From an uncultured Muribaculaceae bacterium (GTDB lineage: Bacteria; Pseudomonadota; Alphaproteobacteria; Rs-D84): a stretch of DNA of 32,000 bases. Positions 1 through 20,147 of this stretch are shown here, one piece after another. The translations under genes were made by a program, and so were the position numbers. Under the pieces are notes generated by a model. That model saw only the letters and a list, made by a program, of their open reading frames with translations, was not told the origin of the DNA and searched no databases. The stretch is from assembly GCA_965231035.1 (NCBI GenBank), contig OZ246409.1:301101-333100 (forward strand), read 5' to 3'. The stretch's first letter is position 1; each line of letters begins with the position of its first letter.

Positions 1-1265
1 CCACCACCAGTTCTGAAAATTGTCATCTGGCCATTTGGCATAAATCCAATATAGTCAGCAGATGAATAACCAGAATCCTTACCACCGACAACCTTGGCTA
101 ATAAATCGTCTATATCTCTTGAAAAAGAATTATTTATAACCGTTCCATATCCAGCCAAGTCGAACGAATTTAGTGCTGCTGAACTTGAATCTTCTTCGGT
201 CGAATCGTCCAATATTGAATCAGACTCTGACCCACGATTTATTTTATTATTATAATATTTGCTGGACATCATATTATTACTTGCAGATATCACGGCATTA
301 TTATTTGTTTTGCTCCATAATAATAATCTATCTTCAAGTGAAGTATCTTGTTTCGCATTTATACCATTCTTTGTTATTATCGCAACATTTGTTGGGCGAC
401 CACCCATAACAGAACCACCAGTCAAAGAACGACCTGAAAAACTTAGCGGTGCTTTTGATTCTGTGTTTCGCAATGTTCGCATACCCATATAACCACGTGC
501 CAGCGCAGAATATCCATGCATCATCAATAAATAATTTTGTTTATACACATGATTTGTCGTATCCGTACTGGTACCGGTCATCAATGCGAAATTATCTTTT
601 AAAATACCTGCGGTTGATGGGCTGTAATAATTCAAATTGTTTGTGTAATTCGCGGTTTCCGATGTCGCATTAGGCATAGCGGGACTGTAAGGTAATTGAA
701 AAGACGCAGTTCCACCACCAGGCGTAACATTTGTACAATCACATGTGCCATCTGCTTTACATATTCCAACACTGGTAATTGAACAACGACATTGTTCACC
801 CGAAACACATTTTGTATTATCTGTGCTGGTGGTATTACTATTTCCAGCAGATACAACATCCGTTAACATAAACAGTCCGCCAACAACAACGGCGGCCCCT
901 GCCGCCGCCAACGCTATGCTTTGGGCAGAAGACAGCCCGCTGAACAATCCACCAGATTCTTCTTTTGGTAATTTGTTTTTATATTTTTTAATCTGATAAT
1001 CACACTTCGAAGCGTCTGCACCGTACATTTGTAAAATCTGTGCGGCACGAATATCATTATTCATCAATGCTGTGCAAACAACCGACAAGCCAGTATTATC
1101 AACATAGTTTATATCCGCACCATTATTAACCAGTGCTTGAACCTGCTGAACATCACCATTCTTTGCTGCGGCCAGCAACTGAGCTGCAACCTTGAAATTA
1201 TCCACTGCAAAAGCGGAAAATGGAACAAAAATCAAAGAAAACAACAATAATCTTATGTACTTCAT
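1..1265 (-). CDS. exported ankyrin-repeat protein with Gly/Ala-rich hydrophobic segment and small Cys-rich patch (partial; C-terminus lies beyond window start)
   Basis: Absent from the ORF track because there is no stop inside the window. Hand translation of the minus strand from ATG 1265-1263 gives 421 sense codons with no stop. It reads MKYIRLLLFSLIFVPFSAFA-VDNFKVAAQLLAAAKNGDVQQVQALVNNGADINYVDNTGLSVVCTALMNNDIRAAQILQMYGADAS (two ANK-like repeats) ... SIALAAAGAAVVVGGLFML ... CVSGEQCRCSITSVGICKADGTCDC ... YIGFMPNGQMTIFRTGG. A purine run (GAGAGAG) lies a few nt upstream of the ATG. Confidence 0.75.
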   Translation of the reverse strand, partial: MKYIRLLLFSLIFVPFSAFAVDNFKVAAQLLAAAKNGDVQQVQALVNNGADINYVDNTGLSVVCTALMNNDIRAAQILQMYGADASKCDYQIKKYKNKLPKEESGGLFSGLSSAQSIALAAAGAAVVVGGLFMLTDVVSAGNSNTTSTDNTKCVSGEQCRCSITSVGICKADGTCDCTNVTPGGGTASFQLPYSPAMPNATSETANYTNNLNYYSPSTAGILKDNFALMTGTSTDTTNHVYKQNYLLMMHGYSALARGYMGMRTLRNTESKAPLSFSGRSLTGGSVMGGRPTNVAIITKNGINAKQDTSLEDRLLLWSKTNNNAVISASNNMMSSKYYNNKINRGSESDSILDDSTEEDSSSAALNSFDLAGYGTVINNSFSRDIDDLLAKVVGGKDSGYSSADYIGFMPNGQMTIFRTGG

Positions 1266-1330
1266 GAAAACTCTCTCTGCTAGAGAAAATTTTAACATAA
1301 AAATGTCAAATCTGTCCAGCGGAAAAAATG

Positions 1331-1603
1331 TTATCTTGTATTAAGTTTTTCAGATTGCAATTTTTTCAATATAATATCATCTGTGGTTTTATCCATATCA
1401 AAACCATCAAGCTTTTTTTCAAACTCTTGTTTTCCAAAATTTTTAATTTTATTTTTATCTTCCAACGACTTGTTAAGCAAATCTATTTTTGTTTTACTTA
1501 AATTTTCATCCAAGGCTTGCTTGACATTTAACAAAACAGATAATGCAAACAGAACCACAAAAGAATATTTACCAAAAGTTTTCAATTTCTTTTTATTATA
1601 CAT
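1331..1603 (-). CDS. small exported or membrane-anchored K/E-rich protein (90 aa), unknown function
   Basis: ORF track. N-terminus MYNKKKLKTFGKYSFVVLFALSVLLNVKQA resembles a signal peptide or anchor. The remainder is charged and coiled-coil-like. AAAGGAAGAG Shine-Dalgarno lies just upstream of the ATG. Co-directional with the 1..1265 gene, 65 nt upstream of it. Confidence 0.55.
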   Translation of the reverse strand: MYNKKKLKTFGKYSFVVLFALSVLLNVKQALDENLSKTKIDLLNKSLEDKNKIKNFGKQEFEKKLDGFDMDKTTDDIILKKLQSEKLNTR

Positions 1604-1727
1604 AAGACTCTTCCTTTGATTACTCTGCTATGTATAATAGACAAACACTATAACCGTCAAGCGTTTTTTCAATTTCAAGTCATTTTAAATATATTTTTGT
1701 TTTTCTCTTTTCTGGTGGGGTGTTTTT

Positions 1728-1736
1728 TGATACAAT
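1728..1736 (+). promoter_or_regulatory. candidate extended -10 promoter element (TGATACAAT) for the four-gene plus-strand operon
   Basis: TGATACAAT matches TGnTAnAAT and ends 15 nt upstream of ATG 1752, within the 148-nt divergent intergenic region. Confidence 0.3.
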
Positions 1737-1751
1737 TAACAAACGAGAGAA

Positions 1752-2618
1752 ATGAATAAAAGTTTTGCCTTTTTCATATTTGCATTCAGCTTTGTATTTG
1801 CTGGTTTTTCTGCCGCAAGTGCTTCTTCGTGCTCGATTATGGATTTGAACAGATGTTTGGATTCAGCTTGCGGAATTAATATCAGCTTAAACCCCGGGGC
1901 ACGTTGTCAGCTTTGTGGAACTGCTCAGGCTGGTGCCGCTGATACAAAAGGATTCAAAAGTTTATCTGTTGGTGCATCAAACCGAAACACATTATCTGCA
2001 TCAGATTTACAATCTGCGCCTTCTGACCCGGGATCCAGATACGCATGGGCCAGTGGCGAATGTTTAAAAAAGATTTCTGGTTGTACCGCAGATGATGTAT
2101 CAAATAACTATGACAAATTAATTGAACAATCTTGTCGTGCTGCGGGTGTTAACGCAGAAATGAATTCTTTGGTATCTGCTGCAAACAAACAAAAAAATGC
2201 AAACGTTTGTAATTCAGAAATTCTTTTGTGTATGAATTCTGAAAAACATTGTGGCGCAGATTTTTCAAATTGCAAAACAGATGAAGATTTTAATAAACAT
2301 TTTTCCGTCTGTGCATCAGATACAATTGGATGTGACAATTTTGTAAGTGATATGCGTACAAATATGATTTCACAGCGTGATTCTGCGACATTGGCTTATG
2401 ATAATTCTGTATCCAGTATTGTTAAATCTTATCAAACAAAACGCGAAAGCGGATTGAAATCTGCAACAGATACTTGCACAAACAACAAGGGACGCGAAAG
2501 TTGCATAAAAACCGTTTGCCAGAATAATATGAAAAACAAGTGTGATAGTGATTCTGAAAAATCAATAGCGACATTGTTATGTAAATTTTACGACACAGCT
2601 TGCGGAAGGTTAAAATAA
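1752..2618 (+). CDS. secreted cysteine-rich protein (288 aa, 20 Cys by hand count), unknown family
   Basis: ORF track. Signal-peptide-like MNKSFAFFIFAFSFVFAGFSAASA. Contains C-x6-C modules including CNSEILLCMNSEKHCGADFSNC (nt 2208-2273). First gene of a tightly spaced four-gene operon. Confidence 0.8.
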   Translation: MNKSFAFFIFAFSFVFAGFSAASASSCSIMDLNRCLDSACGINISLNPGARCQLCGTAQAGAADTKGFKSLSVGASNRNTLSASDLQSAPSDPGSRYAWASGECLKKISGCTADDVSNNYDKLIEQSCRAAGVNAEMNSLVSAANKQKNANVCNSEILLCMNSEKHCGADFSNCKTDEDFNKHFSVCASDTIGCDNFVSDMRTNMISQRDSATLAYDNSVSSIVKSYQTKRESGLKSATDTCTNNKGRESCIKTVCQNNMKNKCDSDSEKSIATLLCKFYDTACGRLK

Positions 2619-2621
2619 CAA

Positions 2622-4184
2622 ATGAAATTATACGGTTCAATTTTTACGACTTGTTTTTTGGCTACTGCCTTGGTGTTATCATATAACCCAGCAAACGCCG
2701 CGGTTGTTCAACGTGGATCTGTAACGGCGCGCGCTGCACCACGTGCAAATAATGCTATGCGTATTGCATCAACAACAACTACCAATGATACTGTTGAAGC
2801 AACAGATACAACAGTTGCGGAACTCGAAACAACAGATACAGCAATTGCAGATGCAAATGTAATTGAAAACAAATCTTCTAAATTTGATTCTGTGTTGGGG
2901 GATGTTGGTTCAAATTCAATGGACGTTTCTGCAAAGTCACGCACACAAATGATAATGGATCAACGTGCTGCTTTGGATGCATCAGATACGCAATCCACCA
3001 GCAAAAAAGTTGTTACGACTGCGGGCAGCACTTGCGATACAAATTTGCGTAATTGTATGAAGCAAAAATGCAATAATGATTTTTCAAAATGTTCTGGGGA
3101 CGGCGATACTGATTGGGGAAACAAAATAAATTCTTGCCGTGCCACTTCAAATTGTTCCAGTGAAGAATTTAATTTATTCGCAGATGAAATCAAGGCAGAC
3201 CGAGACTATAATTCAGAAATGGCAAATTATAATCAAACCATTGATTGCGGGAACAGATATAACAGCTGTATAATTTCGCAATGTGGTACAGATTTTTCAA
3301 AATGCCTTTCTAAATCTGTTGCAGATGCTGCGGTGTTGAATTGCACAAAAATCGCAACCGATTGTCAAAGTGCTGATAACGGTTTAACATCCAGGGCTCA
3401 AGAAGTTTTCGGTACACTTCGTAACAACGCCGTAACCCAGACAAAGAAAGATGAAGATCGCCTATATGAACTGCGCAATTTAATGACAGAACAGTGTAAA
3501 AGTTTCGGTGCTTCGTTTGACGAACGCAGTTTGGATTGCGTATTCACAGTAAATCTGTTCGCAAATAATTCTAAAACACCAATGGCATCAAAAAAATTGT
3601 ACGCCGGTGATACATTTGATTGTAACCAGGATTGGTTTGGTATTGATTTAACAACTTATAAAGAAAATGCTTATCGTTTAACACGTTCCCAGACGGCTGC
3701 ATCATCCGCTATGTTGGGTGCAGGATTGGGTGTTGCCGCCGGTGCGATTTCATCGGGTGCAATCAGCCACGCAATTGATACACACAAGGCAGAAAAAGCA
3801 TTAGACGCCGCAAAAGAAAACTCGAATTCCTCAAGTAACAACGAATCAGGTTTATCATCAGTTGATGGAAGCAGCATGAATAAAACAAACACAGAAACTG
3901 AAACCTCTTCAAAAATTGATGTTGAAACAAACCGGGATCAGGTTTTAAAAGATAATGCTAAGATAACAGGAAATAACGCCGAAGCTATGGAAAATATGGA
4001 TAAATCAAGACAAGATTATGAAACCGCCAAGAAAAACAATGATATGATTGGTATGGCAAATGCTGAAGCTAATATGCACGCAGAAGGAAGTAAAGTAAAA
4101 GAAATGGAACATATAGAGGTATCTTCTACACCATCTGCACCAGAAAAAATAGATGCTTCAAAATTATTAGGTGGATCGAAATAA
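2622..4184 (+). CDS. exported cysteine-rich protein with glycine-zipper-like hydrophobic segment and low-complexity tail (520 aa)
   Basis: ORF track. Starts 3 nt after the previous stop. Signal-peptide-like MKLYGSIFTTCFLATALVLSYNPANA. Two units have the pattern C-x6-C-x4-C-x6-C (nt 3033-3092, 3246-3305). Hydrophobic segment AASSAMLGAGLGVAAGAISSGAI lies at nt 3696-3776. The tail is N/S/E/K-rich. Confidence 0.8.
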   Translation: MKLYGSIFTTCFLATALVLSYNPANAAVVQRGSVTARAAPRANNAMRIASTTTTNDTVEATDTTVAELETTDTAIADANVIENKSSKFDSVLGDVGSNSMDVSAKSRTQMIMDQRAALDASDTQSTSKKVVTTAGSTCDTNLRNCMKQKCNNDFSKCSGDGDTDWGNKINSCRATSNCSSEEFNLFADEIKADRDYNSEMANYNQTIDCGNRYNSCIISQCGTDFSKCLSKSVADAAVLNCTKIATDCQSADNGLTSRAQEVFGTLRNNAVTQTKKDEDRLYELRNLMTEQCKSFGASFDERSLDCVFTVNLFANNSKTPMASKKLYAGDTFDCNQDWFGIDLTTYKENAYRLTRSQTAASSAMLGAGLGVAAGAISSGAISHAIDTHKAEKALDAAKENSNSSSNNESGLSSVDGSSMNKTNTETETSSKIDVETNRDQVLKDNAKITGNNAEAMENMDKSRQDYETAKKNNDMIGMANAEANMHAEGSKVKEMEHIEVSSTPSAPEKIDASKLLGGSK

Positions 4185-4187
4185 AAA

Positions 4188-4784
4188 ATGAAAAAAGTAT
4201 TAACAAGTATCTTTTCTATTCTTATATTAACGCCTGCAATCTCTACTGGTTTGTCAGACTACAAAAATTGTAAACTTAACATAGACTCAGAATATTCCAG
4301 AAAAGAACTTTCTTTAGAATCTCAACAGAAACTTGACACATGGATGAAAACGCCCCTAACAGAAGATAGAAAAGGTACATTTAATAGTATTTCATATTCT
4401 TGCCCAGCTGGGACACTTCCTAGCGACTGCTCCGGACAAGGAAAAGATATTTTAAAATCTCTATATGAAAAATATTTAAAACAAATGGAAATTGATGCTG
4501 CTGTGAAAGAAAAATGTACAAACGACACTTCTATTCAGACAGATGTTAAAAAAACAGAAGTTGTGGAAAATTTAAAGAATACTGTTAAAGAGACCAATAC
4601 TGAAAAAAATAGTAACTCAAAAGAAAGCTTCGGCAGCGGTATTAAGAATATGTTCAAATCCGACAAGAAAAAACTAGCAGAGGCAACTCAACAAGCAACA
4701 GATTCAGAAAAACAAGCATTAGAAGAATTTAACACATCTGTTCAAATTGCAAAATCTGAATTTGAAAGAAAACTTGGAATTTAA
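4188..4784 (+). CDS. secreted protein (198 aa, 4 Cys, K/E-rich C-terminal half), unknown function
   Basis: ORF track. Starts 3 nt after the previous stop. Signal-peptide-like MKKVLTSIFSILILTPAISTG. Confidence 0.7.
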   Translation: MKKVLTSIFSILILTPAISTGLSDYKNCKLNIDSEYSRKELSLESQQKLDTWMKTPLTEDRKGTFNSISYSCPAGTLPSDCSGQGKDILKSLYEKYLKQMEIDAAVKEKCTNDTSIQTDVKKTEVVENLKNTVKETNTEKNSNSKESFGSGIKNMFKSDKKKLAEATQQATDSEKQALEEFNTSVQIAKSEFERKLGI

Positions 4785-4796
4785 AGCGGCAATAAT

Positions 4797-6164
4797 ATGA
4801 AGAAACTACTTTTTGTATTTTTATTTTTACTTCCTGTTACTGCTTTTGCAGATGCTTTTGACGACGCTGTGGCAAAATATGAGTCTGATGTCAAAAATGC
4901 AACAAATATATTGAATAGTAAAATCACACAAAATACAAATCTTGTACAACTGTCCACAGATCAAGTAAACGATGATATGAAATCAACTGTCAGAACAGCT
5001 AAAAAGAAATTTAACAAACAGTTAAGTTCCCAAGAAAAAGAAGATGAACAAAAATATCAAGAAAAACAACAAGAAGTAAGTGAACAAACAGATGTTTCAA
5101 ATTCCGCAAATTCATCAAATGTTACAAATCCTGATAAAATTGCCGAGCTTGAAGCCAATGCCAAGGCAATGAAAGATAAAGAAAACTCAACTGCAAATAA
5201 AATGCTGGGGGCGGCAGCCGTTGGCGCAACCGGAATTGGCGGCAGCCAATTGTTGCAAGGTCTGTCCGAAAAAAAATCAGACGATGCAGCCGAACGTGAT
5301 ATGAAAGCTTATCTGGCAACATTTAAATGTGACTATGGTCAGGGACAAAATGTTAACGGTGGCGATAAATCAATCACCCTGCCCGGCGGAAATGTTTTAA
5401 CATCTTATTACACAGAATATAAAACTCTGGCAGCTAATCTTAAAACTACGAAAACTGCTTTGGGATTAACACCTGGAATTGAATCTGAAACATTATTGGA
5501 TAAATCAACCGCAGGGCTTTATGACAATGAATCAACTGGCAAAAAATCTGGTGCTTTTGCCAGCGTATCTGATGCCTTGTCTGGGAATGCAGATGCTAAA
5601 GACGCTTGGAATGCCCAAAAATCCGAAGCATCTAAAAAGGTCACAACTGGTATTGTTGCCGCCGGCGTTGGTATTGTTGGTGGCGCAGTTGGAAATATGT
5701 TGATAAATAAAGATTCCACCAAGGAAAGTTCAGATGTAAATTCTGATGATAAAAAAACAAATGATACAAGTTCTTCTGTGACTTCTTCTGATAAAAGCAA
5801 TGAACAAAAAATATCTTCTGTTACAAATGATAATGTTTCTTTGGATAACACAGATAAAAAAACTAATACTTTTGAAGATTTAGACAAAAAATATAAAGAC
5901 GCAGCAATCAAATTCAAAGAAGCAGACGAATTATATAATAAATTAGCTAATGAAAGTATGAAAAACGGTGGTGTTGTTACTGAAGAATTAGAAGATGCAA
6001 GAATTGCGCGCGACCAAGCAGAGAAAGACCTTGAAACTGCAAAAAGTGAAACTGTTACAGCCAATTCATCTATGAAAGAAATTCAAACTGGAAATAATAC
6101 CTCTGATGATATCTCGAAACTATCTAATAATTCTTCTACTTTGTCATTGCGAGGAATGAAATGA
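4797..6164 (+). CDS. exported coiled-coil/low-complexity protein with two glycine-zipper-like segments (455 aa)
   Basis: ORF track. Signal-peptide-like MKKLLFVFLFLLPVTAFA. Gly-rich hydrophobic segments are MLGAAAVGATGIGGSQLL (nt 5202-5255) and TTGIVAAGVGIVGGAVGNMLI (nt 5643-5705). The last 7 codons and the stop lie inside repeat copy 6141-6166. Confidence 0.75.
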   Translation: MKKLLFVFLFLLPVTAFADAFDDAVAKYESDVKNATNILNSKITQNTNLVQLSTDQVNDDMKSTVRTAKKKFNKQLSSQEKEDEQKYQEKQQEVSEQTDVSNSANSSNVTNPDKIAELEANAKAMKDKENSTANKMLGAAAVGATGIGGSQLLQGLSEKKSDDAAERDMKAYLATFKCDYGQGQNVNGGDKSITLPGGNVLTSYYTEYKTLAANLKTTKTALGLTPGIESETLLDKSTAGLYDNESTGKKSGAFASVSDALSGNADAKDAWNAQKSEASKKVTTGIVAAGVGIVGGAVGNMLINKDSTKESSDVNSDDKKTNDTSSSVTSSDKSNEQKISSVTNDNVSLDNTDKKTNTFEDLDKKYKDAAIKFKEADELYNKLANESMKNGGVVTEELEDARIARDQAEKDLETAKSETVTANSSMKEIQTGNNTSDDISKLSNNSSTLSLRGMK

Positions 6165-6322
6165 TGTATTAACTGGATTGCCACGCTTCGCTCGCAATGA
6201 CAAATTGTTGGGGTTAGTTATAGTTCCAGTTTGTCATTGCGAGGAATAAAATGACGAAGCAATCCAGGTTGATAAAAGAAAAACATATTGACTGGATTGC
6301 CGTGCTTCGCTCGCAATGACAA
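6141..6322. repeat. cluster of four copies of a palindromic 31-37 nt repeat family, in alternating orientation
   Basis: 6141-6166 ttgtcattgcgaggaatgaaatgatg (truncated). 6173-6203 ctggattgccacgcttcgctcgcaatgacaa. 6231-6267 ttgtcattgcgaggaataaaatgacgaagcaatccag. 6292-6322 ctggattgccgtgcttcgctcgcaatgacaa. The termini ttgtcattgcgag/ctcgcaatgacaa and gcaatccag/ctggattgc are reverse complements. Confidence 0.85.
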
Positions 6323-6331
6323 ATCTAAATT

Positions 6332-6357
6332 AAAAACCGCCCATTTGGGCGGTTTTT
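6332..6357. terminator. bidirectional intrinsic terminator between convergent genes
   Basis: aaaaaccgcccatttgggcggttttt: a GC stem ccgccc/gggcgg flanked by an A-run and a T-run. It sits between the stop at 6164 (+) and the stop at 6373 (-). Confidence 0.8.
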
Positions 6358-6372
6358 AACTTTTATACCTTA

Positions 6373-8421
6373 TTATTGGCATGCGCCATAAGATACTGCA
6401 ACTGGATGATTATCTACGCAAGTGCTGCCAGAAACAACACATGCTGTATTTACCAATTGTGTATTGGTTGAATTAACCGGTTTATAATTCAGCTGTGCTG
6501 CTGCGCACTGGTTCAAATCTTTCAGTGTTGCACAAGCATTCTTCCACGAAGTACAATCTGTCGCAGTTGCTGTTGGCATAATTGTATCTGGCAAACGCAG
6601 GTTCCATTTGACATAGAAGTCTTTTAACGAACCAATGCTATAAGATTTACCAAAGTCAACCTTTTGCAATCCGTCACCAACACGACAGTTAATGTTGTTC
6701 TTTTCAACAAAAGATGTGATTGCTGTTGCCAATCCACCTGCGGCGGCACCAGCACCGGCACCAATTGCAGTTGACGCCAACATGTTTGAATCCTCACCCT
6801 GCAATATTGTCAACTGATTCATAACATTTCCCAGTTCTTTTACTTGTTTTCCAAATTCTTCACTATCAACGCAATTATTGTTATTCCCCGAACAATATGG
6901 TTTTATACCATTCTTTTTTGCAAGATTCAAGTTACTGAATGTCATGGCACATTTATCTGTCGATGTTATAACAGTATTATCATTAGAAAGTTTTTTTACC
7001 GTTATTTTAATACTTCTGGTTCCATCATCAGTCAGGTATTTTACCTTATCTTCTGTCAAACTATTATTCATTACTTCACGATCTTTATTATCCTTTGAAA
7101 CTTTGTCAAGCATTGCTTTACTAGTAGTTCCATCGAAAAGTATATCTTTTGCTGTTACATCTATATCTTCGGTATTAGTAATATTTATTGCTGAATTTGT
7201 TGTACCAGTTGTGCATGATTTCAATGCAACTTTTGCTGCTTGGTAATCACTGTAAAGTGTAACTATGGCTTCGCACTGATCGCCAATATATTCATTTACA
7301 ATAATCTGGCTTTCAGAATCCAAGAATTGATTTAAAACAGCGACCTTGCCAGTTGCACGCAATTCCTTATCCAATTCTTTTACCTGATCTTTGTCTTTGC
7401 AGTTAAAGTTACGTTGACCATGGCCGGCCAATGCACCGATACCTGCACCAACCAATGTACCACCACCAACACCAACGACTGATGTGGTCTTGGTCTTGGT
7501 CATCAAACCAAACCCAAACATATCTTTACCACAGTTAAAGCTGCTGCCTGCTGATTTCCAAACTTCGGCCGGTTGATCATTTCCAGCGGCACCAAATAAC
7601 CAACTGTTTTTGATTTGTGAATCTTTGTTGTACGCTGCAACACGAACCAAACATTCACCCTTGACCGCATCCCATCTGGCATAATGTCCACGTTGTGCAT
7701 CAACAGTACCATTATTATTAACCCTTACACCCTGAGGCATATCTTTGGTCAAAGATCCACCAGACTGACTGTTATAAGCACCAACAGTTTGGTTATATTC
7801 TTCTGTGACTTTTCCACCATTCGAAATCGCTGCAAAAGATGAACCATAAGTATTTTTATCCAACAACCAACATGTATTTTCTGCTTGGTTTGGTGTTAAT
7901 CCTGTTTTGCGCAGAACAAAAGAATAATATTCAGGTTGAATCTTGCGAGAGTTATAGTCCCACCAAAAATCAGAAGAAGTAGCATAAACATTTTTGCAAT
8001 TCTTACGAACGTCGCTGATACATTTATCCACCTGGGCATAACACAGACTCATTCCATTAAAGATAGAATTACGCAAATCTTCGTTGAACAAATCGTTTAA
8101 CCCACCAGGAAGTGCACCGTTGTTAATACAAGAAGTAACATCGTTGATGCAATTTTCAACTGTATATTCAGAATTTGCAACACCACCATCTGGACACTTG
8201 GAAACTGTTGTTCCTGTATTCGTTGTAGTATTACCAGTCGCATTGCCAGGAAGAATTGACATTGTTGGCATACGTTGCTGACCTGCTGTATAGGCTGCCC
8301 CACGAACCGGTGCAACATTATAACCCGCACGCCCTGTATCCGCTGCACCTGCAGAACCTAGAACAAAAACTGTACTTGCAGACACAATGGAAAACCCGAA
8401 TTTCTTTAATAAATTGTGCAT
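6373..8421 (-). CDS. exported cysteine-rich protein with two glycine-zipper-like segments (682 aa, 22 Cys by hand count)
   Basis: ORF track. Signal-peptide-like MHNLLKKFGFSIVSASTVFVLGSAGA. AAGGGAGAA Shine-Dalgarno upstream. C-x6-C pairs include CINDVTSC (nt 8128-8151). Gly-rich segments lie at nt 7417-7479 and 6706-6777. Confidence 0.85.
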   Translation of the reverse strand: MHNLLKKFGFSIVSASTVFVLGSAGAADTGRAGYNVAPVRGAAYTAGQQRMPTMSILPGNATGNTTTNTGTTVSKCPDGGVANSEYTVENCINDVTSCINNGALPGGLNDLFNEDLRNSIFNGMSLCYAQVDKCISDVRKNCKNVYATSSDFWWDYNSRKIQPEYYSFVLRKTGLTPNQAENTCWLLDKNTYGSSFAAISNGGKVTEEYNQTVGAYNSQSGGSLTKDMPQGVRVNNNGTVDAQRGHYARWDAVKGECLVRVAAYNKDSQIKNSWLFGAAGNDQPAEVWKSAGSSFNCGKDMFGFGLMTKTKTTSVVGVGGGTLVGAGIGALAGHGQRNFNCKDKDQVKELDKELRATGKVAVLNQFLDSESQIIVNEYIGDQCEAIVTLYSDYQAAKVALKSCTTGTTNSAINITNTEDIDVTAKDILFDGTTSKAMLDKVSKDNKDREVMNNSLTEDKVKYLTDDGTRSIKITVKKLSNDNTVITSTDKCAMTFSNLNLAKKNGIKPYCSGNNNNCVDSEEFGKQVKELGNVMNQLTILQGEDSNMLASTAIGAGAGAAAGGLATAITSFVEKNNINCRVGDGLQKVDFGKSYSIGSLKDFYVKWNLRLPDTIMPTATATDCTSWKNACATLKDLNQCAAAQLNYKPVNSTNTQLVNTACVVSGSTCVDNHPVAVSYGACQ

Positions 8422-8542
8422 TATTTCTCCCTTTAATTGTTTTAATTATAGCACCAAATACACTATAAAAAAAGTATTTTCTGTATAAAAAACAAATTAA
8501 TATTCTGCGGTTTTAATATTTTTTACGTTTTAGTAGTAATAT

Positions 8543-8571
8543 TTGACAAATAAACAAAATTCGTCTATTAT
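8543..8571 (+). promoter_or_regulatory. candidate sigma70-type promoter TTGACA-17 nt-TATTAT
   Basis: TTGACA at 8543-8548, a 17-nt spacer, then TATTAT at 8566-8571. ATG 8579 lies 7 nt after the -10 element, which would give a leaderless or near-leaderless mRNA. Confidence 0.4.
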
Positions 8572-8578
8572 TAAATTG

Positions 8579-9505
8579 ATGAAAAAGCTGTCTGAGTTTT
8601 TAAAGACAAATGTGCTGGCAGTAAAGTGGACCTTTTGGTATTTTGCTGCGTTTTATGCTGTCCTGTCCTTTTTATTTGGATTTAATATATTTTCTGCAAA
8701 TGATTGGATTATGATTACTCATTCCAGATTGCGCGGACTACCTGGTTTTACTTTTGGAATTATTATGTTTTCAGCAATTCCTTTGTACATTGCGACTACT
8801 GCAACAATTATAAAAACGAAAAAACCTTTATTTAATTTCTTTACTGCAAAAAAAGAAGAACCTAAAAAAATAGCCGAAGAAAAAAAAGAAGTTTTCAAAG
8901 AAATTATTATTCAATTTCCAGAAAGAATGCCGACTGAATTACGTGGTGCGTTTATTCGTGCAAGACAACAAGCTGGTGTCAGACCAGAATCTGCCTTTGA
9001 TATGAAAGACATAAAATCACAACCAAAAGTGGCAATCGAAGAAAAAAAAGAAGAAACACCAGAATTTGGTTTACCATTGCCTGATAATTTTGATTTTACA
9101 TCTGAAAACGAATCGCCTGCCGAATTACAGTTCAGTTCAACACCTGTGTTCAAAGAAATTAATTTTGGAGATTTTAATACAAAGAAAGATAGCAAATCAC
9201 CATTGATTGAACATCTTGAAAGCAAAGGATATGAAATTGCTTTTGATGGTAATGTTGTAATCGCAAATAATTTTGCAATTGCGGTTCACGACGATTCGGA
9301 TTTTTGGATTGCTGATAAAGACAATTGGTTTGCAGCAGGCAAACAAAAAGAATCCCCCATATCCGAAGTTTTAATGGTATCTGAAAAACACGGTGTAAAT
9401 GCGATGATTTATTTGGCGGAAAAAAATATTATGGATTTGGACAAACGAATTGCAGAATGGGAATTCAAAGGAGTCAAGGTTATTAAAAACCTGACTGAAA
9501 TTTAA
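8579..9505 (+). CDS. membrane protein (about 3 N-terminal TM helices plus soluble C-terminal domain), unknown function
   Basis: The ORF track frame runs 8543..9505 from a TTG. I prefer ATG 8579 (MKKLSEFLKTNVLAVKWTFWYFAAFYAVLSFLFGFNIF...) because the TTG coincides with a consensus -35 hexamer and has no SD. This is the only island ORF without a cleavable-looking signal peptide. Confidence 0.65.
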   Translation: MKKLSEFLKTNVLAVKWTFWYFAAFYAVLSFLFGFNIFSANDWIMITHSRLRGLPGFTFGIIMFSAIPLYIATTATIIKTKKPLFNFFTAKKEEPKKIAEEKKEVFKEIIIQFPERMPTELRGAFIRARQQAGVRPESAFDMKDIKSQPKVAIEEKKEETPEFGLPLPDNFDFTSENESPAELQFSSTPVFKEINFGDFNTKKDSKSPLIEHLESKGYEIAFDGNVVIANNFAIAVHDDSDFWIADKDNWFAAGKQKESPISEVLMVSEKHGVNAMIYLAEKNIMDLDKRIAEWEFKGVKVIKNLTEI

Positions 9506-9519
9506 TTAGCTAATAAAAC

Positions 9520-9658
9520 TTGTCATTGCGAGGAGTGCAACGACGAAGCAATCCAGTGGATAAAAATGCAAAAGCATACTTACTGGATTGCCACGCTTCA
9601 CTCGCAATGACAATCTGGTCTTATTTACTGGATTGCCGCGCTTCGCTCGCAATGACAA
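9520..9658. repeat. second cluster (three copies) of the same palindromic repeat family
   Basis: 9520-9556 ttgtcattgcgaggagtgcaacgacgaagcaatccag. 9583-9613 ctggattgccacgcttcactcgcaatgacaa. 9628-9658 ctggattgccgcgcttcgctcgcaatgacaa. Confidence 0.85.
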
Positions 9659-9664
9659 AGAAAT

Positions 9665-9690
9665 AAAAAATCCGCCAAGGCGGATTTTTT
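9665..9690. terminator. bidirectional intrinsic terminator between convergent genes
   Basis: aaaaaatccgccaaggcggatttttt, lying between the stop at 9505 (+) and the stop at 9693 (-). Confidence 0.8.
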
Positions 9691-9692
9691 AT

Positions 9693-12470
9693 TTACATCT
9701 GTACACCATTTGTAACTGTTGTTGGATCTTTGAATTTAGTACAAAAAACACCTTCAAATTTTTTCGTCACTCTTTTTCTTCCACCACCTATATGCAATAT
9801 ACCACCTCCACCTTTGCATCCACCACCACCAAAAAAACTTAACCCACCATAACTACAAGTATTAGATTTTGAATAAACATCTTTAAATGTATCACACATA
9901 GTCGTAACTGTAGTTATATTGCAAGTATTAGATGAAGATGAATATACAGAAGTTAAAGAAACCTTTCCAATCATATTACCCTTAGTATCCGTTTGAGTCC
10001 ATTCAGAATGACCACTGGATGCTACAGAAATTATATCCGACATCTTTGCACCACTTATAATATATTTCATTGAGTAAATATCATTACCAGACACACCTTT
10101 ACTTGATGTATCATCAAACAAATCAGCATAAGATGTAGCTTCATATGCTGTGCAATTCCCGTCAGAATCATAAGTTTTACAAGATTTAGGTTCTGATGCC
10201 ATAGCTGCACACATTGCTGTTTTTAAATCATCATTTTGATTTTCTAATGCTTCTGATACCATTTTATCATACTTTTTATTATAGTTTTTATTTGCTTTTT
10301 CCAAGCCAGAATTCATTATAGCCAATATAGAAGAATCTAATAAATTTGGATATCTTGCCGTAGATGTTGTTGATACTGCATTTGTTCCATCACCACGAAT
10401 TTGTGTCATATCACGACCCTCAATACACATCTTTATTTTTGCATCCTGAGACAAGACAGCTATCTTTTGATTCATCTTATTTGCCGTGGATTGTAAAGAT
10501 GAAACAACGCGTGAGGTCAAAGAATCTGAAGATAATAAATGATTTTTGTAATCATTTATATCAATCTCGTACTTACCAAATTTTACATCTGTATCACTAC
10601 TTTTTGTCCTTTCAATTTTCACATTTCCATAAGAAACTAATCCTTCAATTACATAATCTCCATTATTATCCTTGTAACTGGATAAACTTTCTGTACCAAT
10701 AGAATCATCATCATCGAATGCTGTGCAATTATCAGTATCACCACATATTTCTATCATTTTTTCAGACACAATTTTTTGACATTTATCCAGCAGCGAATTA
10801 TCTATATTAAGGTAAATTCCTTGTACTATATTATCTATATCATTAATATTATTTAAAACGCCATCTTTTTGACATCCTACCAGTTTATCAATTGGACATA
10901 GTTTCTTTATATCACTCAAATCTAAACCTATACAATTATGAAAATCTTCGCCGCAAGTATTTTCATTAGTGAAACATTCTTTAACTTCGGTTGTACAAGA
11001 ATCAACACGCATTGCTGATAATTTTGCATAGACATAATCCAGAATCAAAGGTTCTGCTGAAACACAAGGATCGATTTGCACTTTGCATAAAGAACGAACT
11101 GTTTCTGGACGTGATAAACACATATCATATGAACCATCCGGATCATTTGGATCAATTGTATCTTTACATGCTTTTTGGAAACATGAGGATATATTAGAAA
11201 TACAATTTGTCCGTAAATTAGATTCAGCCAATAGTTCAGCTGTTTTTAAAGTTGGTGCAACATCACGCAAAAATGAATTCCAAACCTGGTCTTTTACTGC
11301 AACACAAGAATTTGTTATATTTTCACACATTGGTTTTTTTGATTCCAGCGCATCCATAGTGGATGCAGCAACTGAAATTTTTGTATTTGATCCGGTTATA
11401 TCAACCATCTTCATAGAAGACTTAGAACTGCTGGACATCTTGGCATTTTCAGCCGCAGCAATTCCAACACAGCCTGTAAAATCACTTTTGCAACCTGCTG
11501 TATCAGTCATGCATTTTTCAAAAGCCAAAGTACACTGACCTAGGTCATATTTATTTGCTGTACGTAATGAATCCAAAGCGGCATCACGCAGAGCCTTTTG
11601 TGCAGTTGCTAATTTCTGTGTGCTGGAATTTTTTTGCTTAGTTAAATCATTTTCATACGCCGCACAATCAGATTTTATATTCTGAGAATAACCAAGTTGT
11701 ATCATTGCCAAATCTTCTGAACATTCTGGAATTTGTGCTGAACACAATTCAGCAACAGAACTATACAAGTCATTACCTGTTTTACCTTCAACAGGGCTTA
11801 CCTCTCTTTGTGCAAATATATCTTGATCCATTGTATCAGAATCCGTCTGATTCCACTGACTTAAATCCAACGTTTTTTTCTGGGTTACATTACTAGTTGT
11901 TAAACTATTTGCTGTATTGTTTGCAGATGCGATTACTTTATCTGCATCAGAACCCATTTCAATTTTTTCAACACCCTCGGTTGCCATTTTATAACTTTGA
12001 GCATCCAAAGCCTGAATCTGAACCTGAACCTTATCCAGCTCAGCCTTGCGATCACTGCATAAACAACGACCGCCACTGGTGTTTTCAATCATACAAAAAG
12101 AATCCATACATCCATAATATTTTTGCTTACAAGCTTCATCCACTATTATATTCTTGTTCACACCAGAAATTGCAGTACCTGAATTTATAACTTTTTGCAT
12201 AGTCCCAGCACGTGCAGAAACAACTGGCGCGGACATTGGAGTTGCCGCAGATCTGGCAGATATTGTTCGAACGTTTGAAGATGTTGCACTGGGCATTACA
12301 GCTGAACGTGCAGAAGTTGGTCTGACAGCAGCACGTGCCGACACGGGTGTTTGTGCAGTGCTTTCAGATGGTTGTGATACAGATTGACCACGCCTTTGCA
12401 CAGGAACTTCAGCATTTGCACACACAACAAAGGTTGCCATAAAAATAGAAAAAATTGCAATTTTTCTCAT
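9693..12470 (-). CDS. large exported cysteine-rich protein (925 aa, 38 Cys in predicted mature part by hand count), unknown family
   Basis: ORF track. Signal-peptide-like MRKIAIFSIFMATFVVCANA. GGAG Shine-Dalgarno about 8 nt upstream. Four SAR[AS][AG] repeats follow the signal peptide. Two units of C-x6-C-x6-C-x6-C lie at nt 11469-11534 and 10932-10997. The C-terminus is Gly-rich. Confidence 0.85.
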   Translation of the reverse strand: MRKIAIFSIFMATFVVCANAEVPVQRRGQSVSQPSESTAQTPVSARAAVRPTSARSAVMPSATSSNVRTISARSAATPMSAPVVSARAGTMQKVINSGTAISGVNKNIIVDEACKQKYYGCMDSFCMIENTSGGRCLCSDRKAELDKVQVQIQALDAQSYKMATEGVEKIEMGSDADKVIASANNTANSLTTSNVTQKKTLDLSQWNQTDSDTMDQDIFAQREVSPVEGKTGNDLYSSVAELCSAQIPECSEDLAMIQLGYSQNIKSDCAAYENDLTKQKNSSTQKLATAQKALRDAALDSLRTANKYDLGQCTLAFEKCMTDTAGCKSDFTGCVGIAAAENAKMSSSSKSSMKMVDITGSNTKISVAASTMDALESKKPMCENITNSCVAVKDQVWNSFLRDVAPTLKTAELLAESNLRTNCISNISSCFQKACKDTIDPNDPDGSYDMCLSRPETVRSLCKVQIDPCVSAEPLILDYVYAKLSAMRVDSCTTEVKECFTNENTCGEDFHNCIGLDLSDIKKLCPIDKLVGCQKDGVLNNINDIDNIVQGIYLNIDNSLLDKCQKIVSEKMIEICGDTDNCTAFDDDDSIGTESLSSYKDNNGDYVIEGLVSYGNVKIERTKSSDTDVKFGKYEIDINDYKNHLLSSDSLTSRVVSSLQSTANKMNQKIAVLSQDAKIKMCIEGRDMTQIRGDGTNAVSTTSTARYPNLLDSSILAIMNSGLEKANKNYNKKYDKMVSEALENQNDDLKTAMCAAMASEPKSCKTYDSDGNCTAYEATSYADLFDDTSSKGVSGNDIYSMKYIISGAKMSDIISVASSGHSEWTQTDTKGNMIGKVSLTSVYSSSSNTCNITTVTTMCDTFKDVYSKSNTCSYGGLSFFGGGGCKGGGGILHIGGGRKRVTKKFEGVFCTKFKDPTTVTNGVQM

Positions 12471-12555: not shown

Positions 12556-12584
12556 AAAAAAATCCGCACGAATGCGGATTTTTT
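12556..12584. terminator. intrinsic terminator ending the ribosomal alpha operon (after rplQ)
   Basis: aaaaaaatccgcacgaatgcggatttttt: stem atccgca/tgcggat flanked by A and T runs, 19 nt downstream of the rplQ stop. Confidence 0.8.
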
Positions 12585-12602: not shown

Positions 12603-13145
12603 TTATTTTCCTGTCGAACGACGTTTAACAGAAACTTCTTTCTTTGCTGATGTTGACTTAGAAACACCTGTATCTTTTGCAACTTTTGTTGCAACTGGTG
12701 CTTTTGGTGCTTTCTTTTCAGCAACTGGTGCAGAAGTTTTCTTTTCTTCTGTTTTCGCAGGTGCTACTTTTTTCGCATTTTCGTCACGATCAACCAATTC
12801 AATTATTGCCATCGGTGCAGCGTCACCATAGCGGAAACCTGCTTTCAATACACGTGTATAACCACCTGGACGTTTTGCATAACGTGGTCCCAAAACAGTG
12901 AACAATTTTTTAACTGTTGATTCACCACTGTTACCAAGTTCAGATGCCAACAAACGACGATTTGCGACAGAATCAACTTTGGCGCGTGTGATTAATTTTT
13001 CCACAACCGAGCGAAGATCTTTTGCTTTTGGCAAAGTTGTTTTAATTTGTTCTTTTTCAATCAAGTTTTTTGCCAAGCCTAAAAACAAAGCTTTGCGTGC
13101 GCTGTTATCGCGGTTAAATTTGCGTTTTGCTATTTGATGTCTCAT
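12603..13145 (-). CDS. rplQ: 50S ribosomal protein L17 with K/A/P-rich C-terminal extension
   Basis: [21 protein letters not shown]... is an L17-type N-terminus. AAGGAG SD upstream. Terminal position after rpoA. At 180 aa it is long for L17 because of the tail [35 protein letters not shown]... Confidence 0.95.
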
Positions 13146-14528: not shown

Positions 14529-15101
14529 ATGAAACAACTATCTGATTCTTACTTTAAAACTGTACAAGATTTTGTACTAAAAAATCTTCAAAACCGTAAT
14601 GTTATCGTTAGTTTTGGAAAATCACACACTGATTTTGGGTATTCTGACAAAAACTTCTTTAAATTGGAAGCATTGAAAACTTTGTTTGATAAGGCCAATT
14701 ATCATATTTCTAATTTGGGCGCAAAAAAACTTGACGGTACCCAAAAAGATGTTTTTTATGATTTACAAGAATTCACATCTTTCCCTTTTGAGGATTCGGA
14801 ATCTAATAAGAAACTTTTTGATGTGCTCAAAGAATCAAATAACGGTTTTGTTCACTCGACTTATATTGAAAAGATTTTTATAAAATTTCCTGTTTTTGAT
14901 TCTGGCAAAGTAAGACAGGTACAAATTTCTGCTTTTCCAGAAGTAAGTGATTTTATAAAAGATCTCAGCTTTGAGCTATTAGCTTCAAAAATTAAAAAAA
15001 TGAAATTATTAGATGCAGTTATTACTTCAAATAATCCAAAAAGAATTCCCCGCAGAAAAACTGCAACGTTAAGTAGTGAAACACCTCAAAATCAAAGATA
15101 A
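14529..15101 (+). CDS. hypothetical protein (190 aa), orphan, inserted in the alpha operon on the opposite strand
   Basis: ORF track. A strong AGGAGGTG Shine-Dalgarno lies 5 nt upstream of the ATG. Followed immediately by a terminator. I recognise no motif. Confidence 0.6.
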   Translation: MKQLSDSYFKTVQDFVLKNLQNRNVIVSFGKSHTDFGYSDKNFFKLEALKTLFDKANYHISNLGAKKLDGTQKDVFYDLQEFTSFPFEDSESNKKLFDVLKESNNGFVHSTYIEKIFIKFPVFDSGKVRQVQISAFPEVSDFIKDLSFELLASKIKKMKLLDAVITSNNPKRIPRRKTATLSSETPQNQR

Positions 15102-15132: not shown

Positions 15133-16002
15133 TTATAAAAACCATTCTAATTTTTTCACAAGTTTTTTAACTTCTTTTTCTTTGATATCTCCCAAAGATG
15201 TTGAAACAATTGCCCAACAAACACAGTTTACCCTATCTACCAAAGAGGTTTTTATTACGATTTCAATATCAACATGTATCCCAGATTTCAATTCATAAGC
15301 GTGTAAGATTTCTTTCAGAAAATCCTTGTATTTTGGGTTATAAAGACTTTGAAAATCATACGCTCTATTACCAAAATTAGCATCTGCCCAGTCAAAAACA
15401 CCTGTTAGGTGTAAATCTTTATTTATTAAACTATTTCCACCACTGAAATCACGATGTAATAGGACAATATCATCAGAATTAAAAATATCTGCATTTTCAT
15501 ATTTATTGTATATATTACTTATTTCTTTATCTGATAAAAACGGCTGTAAATTTTTATTTACATAATCAAAAGATTCCAATTTAAATTTTCTTATTTTTAA
15601 TAAGCCTGGAAATTCTTTTTCTATTTTATTTTTATCTATTTTGTGAACAGAATTAAAAAAACTTGCACAATCATTTATAAAATTTTTTTGCAAATCATAT
15701 GGTTTATTATTTATACCTTCAACGTCCCAACCATTACCAAGTAACATTTTATGAGTTGTATATGGATATTCAACATTATCTACTATTATAATTTTTGGAA
15801 TTTGAACTTCAATATCATTACGAACAAAATCTGTTATTTTTTGTTCTTTTTTATAATCATCCATATTCTTTTTAGGAAATCTTAATATATTATCATCGAC
15901 AATAAATGCTATTGAATCCCAGCCTTCTCCAACAAAGTTTATTTTTGAACTTGAAAACTTATCTTTTAAAAAATCTTCTAAAATATCTTTATTTATTACC
16001 AT
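15133..16002 (-). CDS. aminoglycoside/antibiotic phosphotransferase (APH)-fold kinase family protein
   Basis: 289 aa. Glycine-loop-like VGEGWDSIAFIV. Conserved Lys context LRFPKK. Catalytic loop LLHRDFSGGNSL (HxDxxxxN, nt 15433-15456). Activation segment GVFDWADANFGNRAYDF (nt 15352-15396). This is the pattern of the APH/choline-kinase superfamily. Confidence 0.8.
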   Translation of the reverse strand: MVINKDILEDFLKDKFSSSKINFVGEGWDSIAFIVDDNILRFPKKNMDDYKKEQKITDFVRNDIEVQIPKIIIVDNVEYPYTTHKMLLGNGWDVEGINNKPYDLQKNFINDCASFFNSVHKIDKNKIEKEFPGLLKIRKFKLESFDYVNKNLQPFLSDKEISNIYNKYENADIFNSDDIVLLHRDFSGGNSLINKDLHLTGVFDWADANFGNRAYDFQSLYNPKYKDFLKEILHAYELKSGIHVDIEIVIKTSLVDRVNCVCWAIVSTSLGDIKEKEVKKLVKKLEWFL

Positions 16003-19979: not shown

Positions 19980-20147
19980 TTATCTTTGTTTGTTTCCATT
20001 TATATAGTCAGCATAGTTATTTCTTTTTTTTGTTGCTGCTTCACCTATTTTTTTGGCTGCATAACCCCCTGCAACTATCAAAGCAAAAAGAAACGCTCCA
20101 AATCCAACTATCTCTGCTGTACTTGCATTAGATTCCAAAAGTGTCAT
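19980..20147 (-). CDS. small single-pass membrane protein (55 aa) embedded between rplF and rplR
   Basis: Below the ORF-track cut-off. Hand translation gives MTLLESNASTAEIVGFGAFLFALIVAGGYAAKKIGEAATKKRNNYADYINGNKQR, with TAA at 19980-19982. AAAGG lies 8 nt upstream of ATG 20147. Same strand as the operon. It fills most of an otherwise unexplained 228-nt rplF-rplR gap. Confidence 0.5.
   Translation of the reverse strand: MTLLESNASTAEIVGFGAFLFALIVAGGYAAKKIGEAATKKRNNYADYINGNKQR

Follow-up and report, generated by a model that had tools for sequence, protein, structure and literature searches.

The outer membrane complex of chlamydiae (OmcA, OmcB, and MOMP) is a cysteine-rich, Sec-exported set of envelope proteins in a bacterium that has a reduced genome and depends on other cells. 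It is the closest functional analogy to a gene cluster of the alphaproteobacterial order Rs-D84 (Candidatus Enterousia group), whose members have genomes below 1 Mb, a fermentative metabolism without a respiratory chain, and little biosynthetic capacity (PMC12306168). They also have no standard uptake transporters but many hypothetical membrane proteins and are suspected to be dependent on other cells (PMC12306168). The cluster is located in a stretch of 32,000 nucleotides (hereafter the window; contig OZ246409.1 of assembly GCA_965231035.1, positions 301,101 to 333,100), where nine open reading frames (ORFs), numbered O0 to O8 from the window start toward the ribosomal protein gene rplQ, fill positions 1 to 12,470. 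ORF calls and translations confirmed that all nine are real genes at the positions predicted. The explanation that we favor, at a little short of an even chance, is that they encode a Sec-exported and probably disulfide-stabilized envelope module specific to the Rs-D84/Enterousia lineage, which would form a stabilizing and/or adhesive coat of a cell-dependent bacterium.

The original prediction, made from the letters of the window, took the genes for ORFans, but O8 has more than 1,200 homologs (E <= 1e-3 among the candidates scored), all named ones of which are annotated as hypothetical and none of which carries a Pfam domain. Among 1.84 billion representative proteins, a profile search yielded 894 O8 clusters at 50% identity (716 with E <= 1e-10), and the family turned up in 380 stretches when a single genome of each species was scanned. 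The matches listed belong to metagenome-assembled genomes (MAGs) of uncultured Alphaproteobacteria, "Rickettsiales", and Ca. Enterousia, with a few under other labels; the alphaproteobacterial context that had been surmised is supported. The relatives stem from rumen, feces, cecum, termite gut, and digesters; the O8 of the window is identical to a protein of a MAG that was recovered from an anaerobic digester under the name "Alphaproteobacteria bacterium", with contigs of up to 848 kb.

Comparison of 79 fetched loci revealed that the order rpoA-rplQ / O8-O7-O6-(O5)-O3-O2-O0 recurs in most species at 40–70% protein identity and is conserved over about 60 species, with inversions in a few of the loci and extra tandem copies of O8 in several. 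Because this order is conserved and usually follows directly after rpoA-rplQ, the cluster is a vertically inherited core module. Its G+C content (0.363) is close to that of the ribosomal genes (0.381), and on the basis of this composition and the conserved synteny an acquired genomic island was rejected; the word "island", used for the locus at first, does not hold in that sense. Deviant values are present only in O1 (0.242), which was found in this species only, and O4 (0.317), which is poorly conserved and was detected in a single close relative besides; both may encode small exported proteins that are young, evolve fast, or were inserted recently into an otherwise ancient cluster.

These two genes, with their low G+C content (0.24 and 0.32) and nearly species-specific occurrence, are also what speaks for the view that the entire region consists of horizontally acquired genes, orphan or in decay, that serve no conserved function. 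By contrast, gene length, gene order, and cysteines are maintained in the core genes throughout 380 species genomes, the G+C content of the cluster matches that of the ribosomal genes, and searches of the cluster proteins against PHROGs and PADLOC returned matches only in the ankyrin region, with no phage, transposon, or defense match. The probability of this view is next to negligible, and for O0, O2, O3, O5, O6, O7, and O8 it is in effect refuted by conservation.

The O8 family is locally expanded in some species, whereas the window holds a single copy. Around position 10001 and next to it, loci L007, L043, L047, L059, L065, L070, L071, L078, L079, and L080 contain two or three genes of this family that are arranged in tandem or back to back. 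Distant members of the family (P0376, P0381, and P0372) are encoded on short contigs with little context. In L086 (1-9161), P0381 (1010 aa) adjoins genes for a Peptidase_M23 protein, a small RHH_4 protein, and a 730-aa hypothetical protein; this different context implies that the O8 family is not always tied to rplQ. Some cluster-bearing records are labeled Muribaculaceae, Bacteroides fragilis, or Lachnospiraceae (L042, L082, and L065; proteins P0148 and P0404). These bins are probably mislabeled or contaminated because the cluster adjoins ribosomal genes of the Rs-D84 type.

Export of the products was assessed with sequence rules and by the conservation of the N-terminus among orthologs. All eight N-termini that had been quoted as resembling signal peptides are present, and seven of them combine a basic n-region and a hydrophobic core with an AXA-like site (AFA, ASA, ANA, STG, AFA, AGA, and ANA). 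The N-terminus of O1 (..VKQA) is a weaker signal, and its hydrophobic segment may be either a signal peptide or a signal anchor. The N-terminal hydrophobic cores are retained in 36 of 37, 34 of 36, 45 of 46, and 46 of 46 orthologs. Eight products thus carry predicted Sec-type signal peptides, and eight exported-looking products among nine neighboring genes are far above any genomic background. The translocon gene secY lies in the same window. A conserved lipobox cysteine is absent (the cysteines in the signal peptides of O8 and O3 show a conservation of only 0.10 and 0.74, respectively), which, together with the AXA-type cleavage sites, rules out lipoprotein anchoring.

The second hallmark of the cluster is its cysteines, whose numbers agree exactly with the earlier hand counts: 20 in O2, 16 in O3 (15 in the mature protein), 22 in O6, and 39 in O8 (38 mature). 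Across 37–46 sequences per family, almost all mature cysteines are 100% conserved, i.e., all 20 in O2 (one at 97%; 37 sequences), 15 in O3, 21 in O6, and 33 in O8, whereas the mean conservation of non-cysteine reference residues is 0.41–0.53. CX6C accounts for 27 of the 93 consecutive cysteine spacings, and each cysteine-rich protein has 5–11 such pairs, compared to 0.5–1.5 in shuffled sequences. A 22-aa module, C-x6-C-x4/6-C-x2-[DE][FY]-x2-C, was counted five times, with one copy in O2 and two each in O3 and O8, compared to an expectation of 0.0004.

O2, O3, and O8 have in common a six-cysteine module that is about 50 aa long; in profile–profile comparison, residues 148–198 of O2 align to residues 487–537 of O8 (probability 64%, E 6e-5). 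At the level of families, hhalign paired O2 with O3 (80%), O2 with O8 (73%), and O3 with O6 (67%), but the matches are short, with probabilities of 64–80% over 24–80 columns, and BLASTP between cluster members was not significant (best E 0.008). Short modules are therefore shared, but the proposal that the proteins form a paralogous family expanded in one locus is not supported over their full length.

AlphaFold2 (AF2) modeled O8 mainly as long helices with CX6C pairs within single helices and a C-terminal beta region (predicted local distance difference test [pLDDT] 65, predicted template modeling score 0.38), which suggests disulfide-stapled helices whose exact pairing is a matter of inference. 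The fold has no match in PDB or BFVD, and profile searches with alignments of O8, O2, and O6 retrieved no relatives among PDB sequences. The numbers of conserved cysteines are odd in O3 (15), O5 (1), and O6 (21), which may hint, speculatively, at intermolecular bonds. In each of these proteins, one cysteine is located immediately before a glycine zipper (C334, C178, and C297, respectively).

The invariant cysteines might also be metal ligands or redox-active thiols instead of structural disulfides. An anoxic habitat and a metabolism without respiratory chains (PMC12306168) would suit such a role, as would the fetched flanks, the only DNA searched, in which nothing useful in the way of Dsb-like CXXC thioredoxin genes turned up. 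Nevertheless, CXXC, CXXCH, and histidine partners are almost absent around the cysteines of the cluster, and the constant i, i+7 spacing along the helices agrees with paired disulfides, as do the even cysteine numbers of O2 (20) and mature O8 (38), all of which makes this alternative very doubtful.

Among the exported products, O0 consists of a signal peptide, an ankyrin pair (residues 30–85), a strongly hydrophobic glycine zipper (117–135), a long middle region, and, at its C-terminus and encoded beyond the window, a beta-barrel of about 16 strands. The ankyrin pair recognized in the original prediction is solid: residues 30–78 match Pfam Ank_4 (29.6 bits vs. a cut-off of 22.7), the ankyrin hidden Markov model (HMM) is matched by all six orthologs scanned, and profile searches of PDB with the full-length protein or its C-terminal 800 aa retrieved only DARPins, through the ankyrin pair (E 2.7e-16). 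The protein is conserved end to end and has an invariant cysteine (Cys88) upstream of the zipper.

The barrel was modeled with AF2 on the homolog P0233 (1191 aa; pLDDT 59 overall, 70–87 in the C-terminal region), where about 16 long strands run antiparallel to one another between residues 876 and 1187; the fold of the middle region combines beta and alpha/beta elements (pLDDT ~80). Foldseek matched the model with a probability of 1.0 (E 3e-5 to 1e-3), and all matches listed are barrels, including a Bdellovibrio porin, Omp32, OmpU, OmpF, FadL, TodX, OmpG, and AlgE (entries 9gf0, 2fgq, and 6ehb among them). According to this model, O0 ends in a porin-like outer-membrane barrel, which anchors the envelope location of the cluster. 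The earlier impression that none of the proteins bears a recognizable transporter or secretion signature stands for the cysteine-rich members, which match no curated family or solved structure, but not quite for O0; searches of Pfam and NCBIfam with all nine proteins returned only the ankyrin pair.

Known autotransporter passengers and Sca-type antigens had been named among the characterized families to look for, and for O0 neither Pfam nor the PDB profile search yielded such a match. Pfam Autotransporter (PF03797), SLH, and OmpA are not matched by O0 or its six orthologs (E <= 1), and an aromatic C-terminal beta-signal is absent from the conserved end (...FMxKxxHRLGI in all six orthologs). 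A classical (type Va) autotransporter was rejected on the basis of the missing PF03797 match, the ~16 instead of 12 strands, and the non-aromatic C-terminus. A subtilase-type (S8) autotransporter, suspected from the segments ...AVSSAAGAVGAVKSAF... and FGYGLINLERA, was likewise rejected as a family assignment, with no HMM or PDB profile support, no visible conserved His/Asp triad, and again ~16 strands; a degenerate subtilase domain in the middle region is at most a tentative lead.

Hydrophobic, Gly/Ala-rich helices of the type GxxxGxxxG, termed glycine zippers, are present in O0 (residues 117–135), O3 (358–381), O5 (~138–155 and 282–303), and O6 (313–335 and 546–572). They are the best-conserved parts of the proteins (pairwise identity 0.72–0.80), and in both O3 and O6 an FxCxxDxFG motif is located just upstream of a zipper (hhalign 67%). 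The segments next to them are hypervariable, with a pairwise identity of 0.28 between the zippers of O6 and 0.11 in the tail of O3, and the length of orthologs ranges from 388 to 1161 aa in O3 and from 316 to 989 aa in O5. In O5, the sole conserved core is bracketed by the two zippers and bears the single invariant Cys178, whereas the flanks are variable. The similarity of residues 315–337 of O6 to Gly-zipper_YMGG is below threshold (E 0.032; 14.4 bits vs. a cut-off of 28.9). The hypervariable segments would fit an exposure to a partner or the environment.

Channel formers such as VacA and MscL are known to contain glycine zippers. This precedent, and the fact that the GxxxGxxxG helices are the most conserved parts, raises the alternative that the proteins are pore-forming or secreted effectors whose zippers oligomerize into channels, either in a partner membrane or in the own outer membrane, to gain metabolites. 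Such pores would offset the missing standard uptake systems of Rs-D84 (PMC12306168). They are nonetheless quite improbable, because the proteins show no similarity to toxin or pore families, the cluster contains no secretion ATPase or dedicated exporter, and the large, invariant cysteine-rich domains would be left unexplained.

O7 differs from all other members in having no signal peptide; it is free of cysteines and has two conserved N-terminal transmembrane helices. The second helix is followed by a Lys-rich stretch and by an acidic, Pro-rich linker in which two short conserved motifs, LPLPxDFD and PVFxDIxFDD, occur; the C-terminal domain, about 110 aa in length, is likewise conserved (HxDxDFWIAD...WFAAGKQK). 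Linker and domain are probably cytoplasmic because of the positive-inside rule. Each of its 138 homologs is annotated as hypothetical and belongs to the same lineage, and a search with 29 orthologs identified no relative in Pfam or PDB. The gene is almost always divergently paired with O6. A TonB/TolA-type envelope-spanning protein was considered and rejected, as there is no TonB_C or TolA match and the linker is probably oriented toward the cytoplasm.

One argument for a periplasmic scaffold that is anchored in the inner membrane is that O7, whose place is clearly in this membrane, belongs to the same conserved trio. Here, the zippers would be inner-membrane transmembrane helices and the cysteine-rich domains periplasmic; the tails of O3 and O5 and the middle of O6 would be cytoplasmic or periplasmic spacers, and the assembly would organize the periplasm or peptidoglycan in place of lost tethers. 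The hydropathy of the zippers (1.4–2.2) is in the transmembrane range, and O2, O3, O5, O6, and O8 have neither lipobox nor beta-signal. However, the region between the zippers of O6 keeps conserved cysteines (341, 383, 403, 510, and 517), including a CX6C pair, which fits an oxidizing compartment on both sides, and a stop-transfer at residues 117–135 of O0 would strand its barrel in the cytoplasm. We consider a scaffold of this kind unlikely.

In the envelope module that we favor, the cysteine-rich proteins would be exported by Sec and would then form helical hairpins and bundles that are stapled by disulfides. Glycine zippers would anchor or oligomerize the proteins in or at the outer membrane, beside the barrel of O0, and the hypervariable segments would face outward, toward a partner cell, the host, or phages. 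The lone cysteines that precede the zippers of O3 (C334), O5 (C178), and O6 (C297) might form intermolecular cross-links. O7 would be an inner-membrane hairpin protein with its cysteine-free domain in the cytoplasm and may act as an inner-membrane partner or assembly factor.

Several points weigh against this interpretation. No experiment or homology ties any member to a function. The disulfides are deduced solely from the invariance and spacing of the cysteines, and the usual DsbB-quinone route may be absent in strict fermenters without respiratory chains (PMC12306168). The hydropathy of the zippers would also permit inner-membrane helices; that of the O0 zipper (2.22) resembles a stop-transfer sequence, which is awkward since the C-terminus must reach the outer membrane. 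This C-terminus (...RLGI) is non-aromatic, unlike the usual beta-signal. Hypervariability can equally mark disordered periplasmic spacers, and the confidence of the AF2 models is moderate (mean pLDDT 65 for O8 and 59 for the O0 homolog P0233). A bolder version, which is unlikely, is an envelope architecture of an unrecognized kind: the new alpha-helical, six-cysteine CX6C modules would be stapled by disulfides and cross-linked between proteins through the single cysteines next to the zipper anchors, and together with the 16-strand barrel protein they would make up a covalently stabilized coat. Such a coat would be a functional analog of the chlamydial complex that evolved independently, and it would attach these strictly anaerobic gut bacteria with tiny genomes to partner cells. 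If true, a lineage that has no respiratory chains would also need a route of oxidative folding.

The coordinates of the genes and signals are compiled in Table 1.

Table 1. Genes, regulatory signals, and neighboring features of the window (positions are those of the 32,000-nucleotide stretch; residues are those of the proteins)
Feature	Position	Strand	Product (aa)	Description
O0	3..1265	-	421 inside window; full protein 1245	runs off window; alternative model from the gene caller's upstream start, 1256 aa
O1	1331..1603	-	90	basic N-terminus and hydrophobic segment; Lys/Glu-rich; no Cys
O2	1752..2618	+	288	signal peptide; 20 Cys; six-Cys module at residues 148-198
O3	2622..4184	+	520	signal peptide, variable Thr/Ala-rich linker, Cys domain (two CX6C-CX4C-x2-DF-x2-C modules), FxCxxDxFG motif, glycine zipper (358-381), hypervariable polar tail; 15 invariant mature Cys
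O4	4188..4784	+	198	signal peptide; 4 Cys; polar tail
O5	4797..6164	+	455	signal peptide; two glycine zippers (~138-155, 282-303)
Hairpin terminator	6330..6359	both		bidirectional; separates the convergent genes O5 and O6
O6	6373..8421	-	682	signal peptide; 22 Cys, 21 conserved; Cys-rich N domain (pairwise identity 0.76), zipper 1 (0.80), hypervariable middle (0.28), zipper 2 (0.78), Cys-rich C domain (0.69)
O7	8579..9505	+	308	alternative TTG start at 8543, 320 aa
Hairpin terminator	9661..9694	-		at end of O8
O8	9693..12470	-	925	signal peptide, Ala/Arg/Ser-rich variable linker, long alpha-helical core (30 invariant Cys, CX6C heptads, two 22-aa modules), C-terminal beta-rich region with Gly-rich loop
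Promoter-like site for O8	12522-12495	-		
Hairpin terminator	12557..12584			between rplQ stop and O8 start
rplQ (L17)	12603..13145	-	180	final gene of ribosomal operon; conserved cluster boundary
ORF	14529-15101	+	190	GC 29%; no family match; between rpsK and rpoA
APH-family phosphotransferase gene	15133-16002	-		GC 25%; between rpsK and rpoA in alpha operon
ORF	19980-20147	-	55	hydrophobic segment (…FGAFLFALIVAGGYAA…); between rplF and rplR in public annotation
Ribosomal gene region	31753 to 12603	-		fusA, tuf, S10/spc/alpha ribosomal operons including secY, rpoA, rplQ

Rfam and tRNA scans of the window returned no matches. On the far side of the cluster, just beyond the window start, O0 is followed by two adjacent ORFs of 119 aa (locus L083, 4984-5743) that look cytoplasmic and have neither a signal peptide nor a family match. 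Past them are grpE, tpiA, the gene of a SurA-like chaperone, which is located 3.5 kb past O0, and an N6/N4 DNA methyltransferase gene.

The ribosomal operons next to the cluster have peculiarities of their own. The phosphotransferase gene of the APH family and the 190-aa ORF that are inserted between rpsK and rpoA are present in this species only, and L025 has an APH gene of opposite orientation at the same site. Among relatives, the distance between rpsK and rpoA varies between about 0.15 and 5 kb, which makes the site look like an insertion hot spot. In the rplQ product, the L17 domain comprises residues 24–118 and is followed by a Lys/Ala/Val-rich C-terminal extension of about 60 residues. 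The position of the 55-aa ORF is an unusual site within the spc operon.

The cluster takes up about 16 kb of a genome smaller than 1 Mb and comprises several undescribed protein families and a new cysteine module that have no counterpart in Pfam, NCBIfam, or PDB. Because its order is kept and its cysteines are invariant, it is a strong candidate for the machinery that underlies the life of Rs-D84 with other cells. The lineage is widespread in the guts of humans, livestock, rodents, birds, and termites and in digesters (PMC12306168). The cluster also raises the puzzle of how a fermentative anaerobe without quinone-linked respiration oxidizes dozens of exported cysteines, and it offers candidate surface antigens for the enrichment, sorting by fluorescence in situ hybridization, and imaging of these uncultured bacteria.

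Several described systems share individual features with the cluster. The closest known kind of protein for O0 is a porin-like outer-membrane barrel with a long N-terminal extension, for example the tether porins of the OmpM/SlpA type; O0 likewise has a large region between its signal peptide and the C-terminal membrane barrel. Autotransporters and the Sca proteins of Rickettsia are a looser analogy, and the barrel of O0 has ~16 instead of 12 strands. Unlike both groups, O0 has an ankyrin pair and a zipper at its N-terminus, a non-aromatic C-terminus, and no match to Autotransporter, SLH, or OmpA. The glycine-zipper lipoproteins of the outer membrane (SlyB, PCP, and the 17-kDa antigen of Rickettsia) share conserved GxxxGxxxG helices in exported envelope proteins, of which O5 and O6 have two each. 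By contrast, the proteins of the cluster have no lipobox, their zippers are 130–210 aa apart in large cysteine-rich proteins, and the HMM match is sub-threshold.

In the intermembrane space of mitochondria, the twin CX9C and CX3C (CHCH) proteins also have cysteine pairs at fixed helical spacing, which would staple helices by disulfides, whereas the spacing in the cluster is 6 instead of 9 or 3, the proteins are bacterial and much larger, and no homology was detected. The Hcp proteins of Helicobacter (Sel1-like) are exported helical-repeat proteins with regular cysteine pairs, but the cluster has no match to the Sel1 HMM, and both module and spacing pattern differ. The likeness to CHCH and Hcp proteins is thus a structural analogy only. 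The chlamydial complex differs in that the cluster proteins have no match to Chlam_OMP6 or Chlam_OMP (E <= 0.1), are predicted to be mainly alpha-helical, are organized in CX6C heptads, and stem from bacteria of an anoxic habitat. Nevertheless, cross-linking by disulfides, which for the cluster is a conjecture, would be a plausible stabilizer of the envelope in both lineages.

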